From Octopus sinensis (Eukaryota): DNA of 15,805 nucleotides. The notes beneath the pieces are model-generated. The model was given only the letters and a program-made list of their open reading frames with translations, was not told where the DNA came from and did not search any database. Positions 10,971 through 11,237 of this stretch are shown here, piece after piece. The stretch covers positions 1-15,805 of the forward strand of contig NW_021825365.1 in the NCBI RefSeq assembly GCF_006345805.1, read 5' to 3'. How positions within the stretch are numbered: the first letter of the stretch is position 1; every line of letters starts with the position of its first letter. Both the position numbers and the translations under genes were made by a program.

Positions 10971-11236
10971 ATAGAAATGGTAAGACAACAAAAGAATGAA
11001 AGAGACCTCGATATTACGTAAATAGAGAAATTTATCTGTAAATGTAATATGTGACAATTATTCGGTAGCCGTGATAAAACTCTGAGTTTCGGATGTCGAG
11101 TGGAAATCCATGCCGCCATCTCTTCAGTTATCCGGAAAAAATGCTATGAAAAACTTATATTAGCATTTTTACCAATGGCTGGATAACTGAAGAGATGGTG
11201 GCATGGATTTCCACCCCGCCATCCAAAACTCAGAGT
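10971..11236. mobile_element. Penelope-like repeat ending in a ~158-bp palindrome (11079-11236)
   Basis: Arms 11079-11135 and 11179-11236 are reverse complements; inner hairpin aaaaatgcta/tagcattttt; each arm holds a hammerhead. Confidence 0.7.
11073..11132 (-). ncRNA. Type I hammerhead motif (family 6), intact core
   Basis: Minus: gataa CTGAAGA gatggcg...cgacatc c GAAA ctc-a-gag TT ttatc; stem I 5/5; GUU site at 11078/11077. Confidence 0.78.
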
Positions 11237-11237
11237 A
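11182..11237 (+). ncRNA. Hammerhead motif (family 6), probably inactive copy
   Basis: gataa CTGAAGA gatggtgg...ccgccatc c AAAA ctcagagt a; G12A change and no 3' strand for stem I. Confidence 0.6.

Follow-up and report, generated by a model that had tools for sequence, protein, structure and literature searches.

Positions 11077-11237 of the window, by which we mean the whole 15,805-nt stretch of Octopus sinensis DNA analyzed here (NCBI RefSeq assembly GCF_006345805.1, contig NW_021825365.1, positions 1 to 15,805), are two head-to-head copies, within (TA)n, of the 3' part of a high-copy noncoding repeat with a hammerhead motif, and were likely produced by the enzyme of a Penelope-like element (PLE) through reverse transcription from nicks in both DNA strands. 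Two fixed outer ends, here called S and L, characterize the arms of this repeat and lie ~45 nt and ~113 nt, respectively, past the predicted ribozyme cut site. Positions within an arm are given in the coordinates of an arm model of 210 positions, built from 29 long arms, in which the core occupies 35-41 and 73-75, helix III occupies 76-84, U17 is position 85, and the cut falls between 85 and 86.

The palindrome and its hammerhead motif

Reading both strands of the window identified two inverted, outward-facing copies, one on the minus strand at 11077-11136 and the other on the plus strand at 11180-11237. Aligned with each other, the two arms are 80% identical over 158 nt (11079-11236; E 6.5e-32). 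The palindrome and its surroundings comprise:

10892-10965, no strand: (TA)-rich microsatellite beside the outer (L) end of the long arm, the presumed target (from the sequence; most L ends adjoin (TA)n)
10966-11032, minus strand: putative "tail" of 67 nt (model 131-198), bounded by the two alternative 3' ends of the family and present in the minus arm only (from the arm model, with bimodal ends at 130 and 198)
11033-11077, minus strand: segment between the predicted cut site and the S site (model 86-130), including the 3' strand of helix I at 11069-11077
11078-11135, minus strand: predicted hammerhead motif with complete core (from the sequence, core conservation in 166 arms and helix pairing in 34 arms)
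11137-11179, no strand: palindrome center, made of the decayed inner ends (model ~1-28) of both arms
11180-11237, plus strand: short arm with the same hammerhead motif carrying G12A (A at 11225; arm-model match 9-84)
11238-11277, no strand: (TG)2 and then (TA)n microsatellite beside the short arm

The minus arm spans model 3-198; past the predicted cut it continues for 112 nt, ending in ...TATCAATA at 10966 before (TA)n begins, and at the palindrome center it lacks 7 nt (GATGGCC) that are present in the family. The plus arm spans model 9-84, with CUGAAGA at 11187-11193, an A in place of G12 at 11225 (CCAAAAC), and GAGU finishing at 11236. Its position 17 (11237) is an A where the family base is U, and the next letters are tgtgtatta(ta)n. 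Homology in this arm stops at U16.1 (11236) or at position 17 (11237), at most 1 nt from the cut, and the arm is without model 86-130, which other short arms have. The window copy is 84-89% identical to its relatives and shows CpG decay, divergence that marks it as old. Runs of (GAT)n/(CAT)n, found at 10867-10888 in the window and at several other loci (e.g., L047, L059, and L091), often adjoin the (TA)n tracts that hold insertions.

On the minus strand, positions 11135-11069 spell a type I hammerhead motif in which every core base is present:

11135-11128, minus strand: helix I 5' strand, CCGGAUAA
11127-11121, minus strand: core C3-A9, CUGAAGA
11120-11091, minus strand: helix II, a 30-nt hairpin
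11090-11088, minus strand: G12A13A14 (GAA)
11087-11079, minus strand: helix III, ACUC-A-GAGU
11078, minus strand: U17, with the predicted cut between 11078 and 11077
11077-11069, minus strand: helix I 3' strand, UUAUCACGG

Helix I of this arm (11135-11128 with 11077-11069) consists of 5 bp, an A bulge, and 3 bp. All core positions (C3 U4 G5 A6 N7 G8 A9, G12 A13 A14, A15.1-U16.1, and H17) are as expected in the minus arm and in the family majority; the plus arm departs from them at G12. A first-pass annotation of the window had noted both the complete core of the minus arm, continuing well past the cut, and the G12A change of the plus arm, whose homology gives out at the cut site before a microsatellite; both observations hold. 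Because it sits on a CpG and is seen as A in 29 of 163 arms, G12A is ordinary decay. The A of the helix III loop (43 of 163 arms) is also a CpG decay product, as is most variation within the family. Outside CpG sites, the core is 95-99% conserved in 166 arms. When 34 arms from three subfamilies (A, B, and C, see below) were compared, 91.3% of 883 cells in the three helices were paired versus 36-54% with slid partners, the structure having been read from these same sequences. Covariation is weak, with five pairs showing changes on both sides (8 cells), a level reached by 27 of 500 shuffles; pair 37-46 is UA in 26 of these arms, UG in 4, and CG in 3.

Searches of Rfam returned no hammerhead at the gathering score, none at E<=10 in the 150 matches listed out of 160, and none in all 48 matches on 221 nt; the matches are to microRNA hairpins only and are caused by the palindrome and the microsatellites. 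The minimum-energy fold of the monomer is not a hammerhead and carries no stability signal (z -0.05), as expected given that the monomer cannot close a helix III of 4 bp with a 1-nt loop. The grounds for assigning a hammerhead are therefore the motif, its conservation across family members, and its context. In PLE hammerheads, helix II is long, helix III is small and palindromic, and activity is that of dimers, in agreement with the earlier remark that the 1-nt loop would favor pairing between two copies; minimal variants are reported to escape standard descriptors (PMC4209133, Cervera & de la Pena 2014). For cleavage, the published examples depend on dimer formation or on the PLE protein. By its sequence, the feature is a type I, PLE-type hammerhead motif with a small palindromic helix III, and self-cleavage is predicted; a few arms that stop at U17 (see below) may be its indirect traces.

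An ATG stands at the start of stem II (11119-11117, minus strand), 40 nt before the cut, and in the family majority it begins a 20-codon frame (model 43-103) that runs to TAA. The open reading frame (ORF) of an anole PLE begins at the corresponding point of its own hammerhead (PMC11167929, Frangieh et al. 2024), a parallel that hints at derivation of the repeat from a PLE pseudo-LTR/ORF junction.

A high-copy family with two outer ends

The repeat unit is noncoding and ~0.65-0.8 kb long, and its hammerhead lies ~113 nt from the 3' end. At least 7,727 hammerhead-bearing arms in the 2.7-Gb genome contain a 20-nt anchor that spans GAAAC and helix III, and the reversed control of this anchor has 0 matches. 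A search with 266 nt of the window yielded 2,979 candidates at first look; 40 of them were scored, and all 29 other loci returned contain both arms and share the palindrome and its center. The window palindrome is therefore not a chance structure. Because this set had been picked by likeness to the window, we drew a separate sample that is independent of arm ends, comprising the first 100 of 254 exact matches to a 15-mer inside helix II (reversed control 0) with 800 nt on each side. The arm model found arms in 98 of these 100 loci, and ~220 of the at least 7,700 arms were mapped in total.

About 40% of arms are single (36 loci with a single arm in unfiltered model matches). Upstream of single arms, a non-palindromic 5' region is conserved over at least 440 nt; it contains internal repeats of ~80-170 nt, is truncated to varying degrees, and, like the arms themselves, showed no long ORF. 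Three related subfamilies can be distinguished, namely A (that of the window), B, and C. The majority core of subfamily B is CCGAAGAG (U4C), and subfamily C has CUGAAGAG or CUGACGAG with helix II partly compensated. In subfamily B (e.g., L177:275-360 and L182:277-362), U4C falls on a CpG, but copies of the subfamily are numerous. There are two possibilities: subfamily B is ribozyme-dead yet mobile, or CUGA arose from CCGA by deamination in the master copy of subfamily A. Multiplication of subfamily B with U4C agrees with the published view that cleavage is unnecessary for insertion. At one locus (L163, G000:C27:2867773-2868721, minus strand), at least four 60-nt units are arrayed in tandem; each is a minimal hammerhead copy (model ~31-91, ...GAAGAGATGG...GAAACTCAGAGTTTTATATAAC), and together they form a retrozyme-like mini-satellite that comes from the same family.

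Outer ends in the arm-end-independent sample fall at two sites. S ends account for 74 of 158 arms (model 120-136, 44 of them exactly at 130) and read CATTTACAGATA and then (TA)n, or CATTTACA and then (CA)n. L ends account for another 74 (model 181-198, 59 of them exactly at 198, where TATCAATA is followed by (TA)n). The other 10 arms end at 89, 103, 109, 113, 115 (twice), 152, and 167 or are alignment artefacts (two). Flanks are mostly (TA)n, in some cases (CA)n, and in a minority unique DNA, and the (TA)n flanks mask the exact junctions and any target-site duplication.

A divergent pair is present at 57 of the 98 sampled loci with arm matches, and a convergent pair at none. Hand counts over the first 100 matches of each of two anchors, taken genome-wide and within 1 kb, gave 15 and 20 divergent, 0 convergent, and 1 and 2 tandem pairs. 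The 57 pairs divide into 46 S/L, three S/S (two doubtful), one L/L, and seven with one odd end; the tail is thus on one arm only in 46 of the 57. Arms outside pairs are nearly even (21 L, 18 S, and 3 other), so the pairing of S with L does not reflect independent assortment. Mixed pairs make up 46 of the 50 that can be classified versus about half under free assortment (two-class binomial ~2e-10 for at least 46 of 50).

Arms that end at the cut site

Breakpoint mapping across copies, which the first-pass annotation had proposed as a check on its idea that cleaved RNA ends are the integrated form, showed that the ends of the 158 arms are nonrandom but lie mostly at S and L, 45 and 113 nt downstream, and not at the cut site. 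A single arm of the 158 ends at the cut site (L122, GAGTT and then (AT)n), as do two of 61 arms picked by similarity, that of the window and that of L015, in which GAGTT is followed by unique DNA exactly at U17. No arm among the 158 sampled and 61 similarity-picked arms ends at model 68-83.

A genome-wide filter requiring an intact 20-nt anchor and foreign sequence at model 90, 93, and 94 retained 146 of 7,727 anchors, and from the first 100 of these matches 40, chosen by eye, were inspected. Among the 40, nine arms have their end at model 84-89, with GAGTT-TTAT-(AT)n in five, GAGTT-(AT)n in two, GAGTT-T-CATATA in one, and a unique-DNA flank in one (L162, at 85/86); L015 is also among the listed filter matches. 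Subfamily variants, small indels, and tandem structures make up the remaining inspected matches, together with internal deletions, four of which start at 85-90 (L152, L155, L158, and L167). Cut-site ends recur at ~0.2-1% of arms; extrapolation gives roughly 15 of 7,727 genome-wide. Most of them lie 1-4 nt past the cut and have TAT in common with the microsatellite, and the density of ends at model 84-89 is not above that at 90-122. For the reciprocal product, arms starting at model 84-86, there were 59 filter matches among 2,646 anchors, ~20-25 of them real when the listed flanks were judged by eye, and a control start site 10 nt downstream gave 21 among 2,046 (~7-8 real by the same judgment). 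Starts at the cut site thus exceed the control at most ~1.5-2-fold per position.

Arms stopping at the cut site are a rare variant, not the rule, in this family. The rarity of such ends and the weak reciprocal enrichment make self-cleaved RNA at best an occasional template, which goes against cleaved RNA ends as the integrated form; hammerhead mutants likewise leave PLE insertion in vitro unaltered (PMC11167929). For the short arm of the window, three origins (later deletion of model 86-130, infrequent initiation at U17 or close to it, and a self-cleaved template) cannot be told apart from this copy alone.

That this arm was an ordinary S arm, which lost model 86-130 later through deletion or slippage by the microsatellite and matches the cut site by chance, is a serious possibility if not a probable one. 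S ends directly abut (TA)n or (CA)n, shortened ends are scattered at 103-122, four loci have the internal deletions from 85-90 noted above, and the window copy is old and decayed. However, the end in L015 falls on that nucleotide too and is followed by unique, non-repetitive DNA, and no arm ends upstream of the cut site, a boundary that random deletion would not respect. The abrupt onset of ends at the cut site, the ends of the window arm, L015, and L122 at model 84-85, and the nine ends at 84-89, including the unique flank of L162, would instead fit copying of the short arm, in the window and a few other copies, from hammerhead-cut RNA with a 3' end at U17 bearing a cyclic phosphate. We regard such a template as fairly unlikely: besides being rare (1 of 158 arms), most of these ends read GAGTT-TTAT-(AT)n and are fitted equally well by slippage or microhomology, the density of ends does not rise at 84-89, reciprocal starts are not clearly enriched, and subfamily B also multiplied with its altered core.

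Probable insertion by a Penelope-like enzyme

PLE copies are heavily 5' truncated, with an inverted 5'-truncated copy beside the upstream end and a tail of 30-40 bp that is often at one end only; they show a bias toward (TA)n and have hammerheads in their pseudo-LTRs (PMC8557442, Craig et al. 2021). Paired minimal hammerheads have been described 100-700 bp apart on opposite strands (PMC4209133). Purified PLE protein cleaves and extends both strands and prefers AT-rich DNA, and reverse transcription starts at two adjacent internal RNA sites, the interval between which is the genomic tail (PMC11167929). The octopus family shares with such insertions a hammerhead near the 3' end with long helix II and small palindromic helix III, heavy 5' truncation, inverted 5'-truncated copies standing head to head at a spacing of 100-700 bp, two alternative 3' ends of which the extended one is found on a single side, insertion into (TA)n or AT-rich DNA, and an ATG at the start of stem II as in the anole element. 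It differs in having a tail of 68 nt rather than 30-40 bp, in the near-obligate coupling of its ends (46 of 50 S/L), whereas in vitro the two start sites are used alike on both strands (PMC11167929), and in lacking an ORF for reverse transcriptase (RT) and GIY-YIG. With four of five tested PLE insertion features present, the feature is, by analogy, one that works like a non-autonomous element mobilized by PLEs. The suggestion that outward-facing geometry is an integration signature across unrelated families is borne out by the divergent pairs, with no convergent one among those counted, and by the same layout in the family at 2680-3060 of the window; this signature is real but already described for PLEs (PMC8557442; PMC4209133; PMC11167929).

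The fifth feature is an RT and GIY-YIG ORF or an autonomous partner sharing the terminal module. The genome contains 5,029 first-look GIY-YIG candidates, and two intact PLE copies were identified with ORFs of 867 and 764 aa combining RVT_1 with a C-terminal GIY-YIG domain. Scanning 12-14 PLE loci, a small part of the PLEs of this genome that includes the two intact copies, with the arm model and a core regular expression found none that shares the arm. Two PLE loci have CUGAUGA...GAAAC motifs of their own (L186 at ~2621 on the plus strand; L191 at ~977 on the plus and 2319 on the minus strand) with perfectly palindromic helix III (ACUCGAGU and ACGAUCGU) of the published PLE type. The intact 764-aa copy is flanked by 267-nt direct repeats that are 87% identical (L206:1267-1522 and 5263-5529), and the downstream repeat starts at a (TA)n run after the 3' untranslated region (L206:5263-5280).

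If a PLE enzyme inserted the repeat, S and L would be the two internal start sites of reverse transcription known for PLEs, and the 68 nt between them would be the PLE tail. One start site would be used per DNA strand, and the two cDNAs would be joined at their 3' ends via template switching, which would leave a variable center. Against this reading, strict S/L pairing is not predicted by the in vitro work in the sections cited (PMC11167929).

Center junctions of the pairs range from ~-174 to +129 in element coordinates, some arms extending 59-174 nt into the 5' region and others being cut at 66-129, and, as these junctions differ between loci, pairs formed repeatedly. Many inner junctions, some single arms (L059 and L065), and the S arm of L099 start at TTTTTCATAGC (model 1-5; ~11155-11160 at the window center), which is a 5'-end hot spot that may reflect a transcript start or a strong reverse-transcriptase stop.

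Alternatively, the palindrome could itself be mobile, with the pair formed once and the window lineage consisting of retrotransposed copies that inherited S, L, and the center. All 29 of the best matches to the window have the center near model 1-3 on both arms, many sampled pairs are centered within model 1-25, and L012 holds two units in tandem. We think this improbable as an account of the pairs: those with clearly different centers (59-174 nt into the 5' region, or cut at 66-129) are likewise S/L; the far arm, expected to be variably truncated if a palindromic RNA were copied, ends at S; and the start at model 1-5 that single arms and the S arm of L099 also have may be a common 5' end of the template. 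Some pairs, perhaps including the window lineage of at least 30 copies, may nonetheless descend from a palindromic master and not from independent events.

Metazoan non-LTR retrozymes form tandem arrays that yield circular RNAs of 170-400 nt; like the octopus repeat, they are short, noncoding, low-GC repeats with type I hammerheads and are thought to be mobilized by PLEs (passages cited from PMC7229834; bioRxiv 10.64898/2026.07.22.740005). The window family differs in being dispersed as single or head-to-head arms (2 tandem versus 20 divergent pairs in the first 100 matches of one anchor), and the few tandem pairs counted for the two anchors are not the arrays of a retrozyme. Moreover, head-to-head ribozymes lie on opposite strands and hence cannot flank, or dimerize within, one transcript.

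In L1 twin priming, as Ostertag and Kazazian reportedly set it out in 2001, both nicked strands prime on the element RNA. The template is said to be partitioned, giving an inverted 5' piece beside a direct 3' piece, with a variable internal priming site. Two of the octopus loci, L099 and L112, look exactly like this: their L arm is the inverted tail alone, and their S arm carries the rest with no duplicated part. Most pairs here differ in duplicating the same stretch, and the internal priming site is fixed (S).

The palindromic shape, small size, and TA-rich flanks are also those of MITEs or foldback DNA transposons whose terminal inverted repeats are long and whose target duplication is TA, but such an origin is highly improbable because the two ends are not equivalent (S versus L), ~40% of arms are single with a long non-palindromic 5' region and graded truncation, and centers vary with no fixed termini common to both ends. 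The family was accordingly rejected as a MITE, a class expected to have equivalent terminal inverted repeats, fixed ends, and a target-site duplication.

The first-pass annotation had compared two further palindromes of the window. That at 2693-2826 and 2834-2967 is real; its family, unrelated to the repeat described above, is also high in copy number (2,981 first-look candidates) and includes both palindromic pairs and single arms. The right arm of this palindrome is ~95 nt longer than the left, reaching ~3056-3060, so that the ends are again unequal. A canonical helix III with A15.1-U16.1 could not be placed by eye in the hammerhead-like motif of 2680-3060. At 8390-8420 and 8779-8812, terminal inverted repeats of ~30 nt enclose ~360 nt that include (TTA)n; reading 8390-8812 by eye revealed no hammerhead core, and this structure looks more MITE-like than the hammerhead palindromes.

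Insertion by a PLE enzyme, the reading that we prefer, removes an apparent novelty, since the hammerhead palindromes of the window become ordinary Penelope-type insertions. It also documents, quantitatively and at genome scale, a process for which a single in vitro system is the main source of knowledge: thousands of copies record where reverse transcription started (two sites), the use of both strands, and the coupling of the sites in double insertions. In the passages of the PLE papers cited here, we found no statement of near-obligate S/L pairing, of pairs made of a tail and an S arm, or of the absence of ends upstream of the cut. We suggest, tentatively and with considerable doubt, that in living cells a PLE particle uses S once and L once, one per strand and possibly on a single RNA, and that arms ending at U17 are fossils of RNAs cut by the hammerhead in vivo. 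Were the former true, head-to-head insertions would be S/L by construction; were the latter true, these arms would be the first in vivo trace of PLE hammerhead cleavage, such as RNA-seq of the anole failed to show. The formation of tandem and inverted structures and the bias toward microsatellites are named as open points for PLEs in the cited part of Craig et al. 2021 (PMC8557442), and the octopus family is a compact, high-copy substrate for testing how inverted structures form and why microsatellites are preferred.
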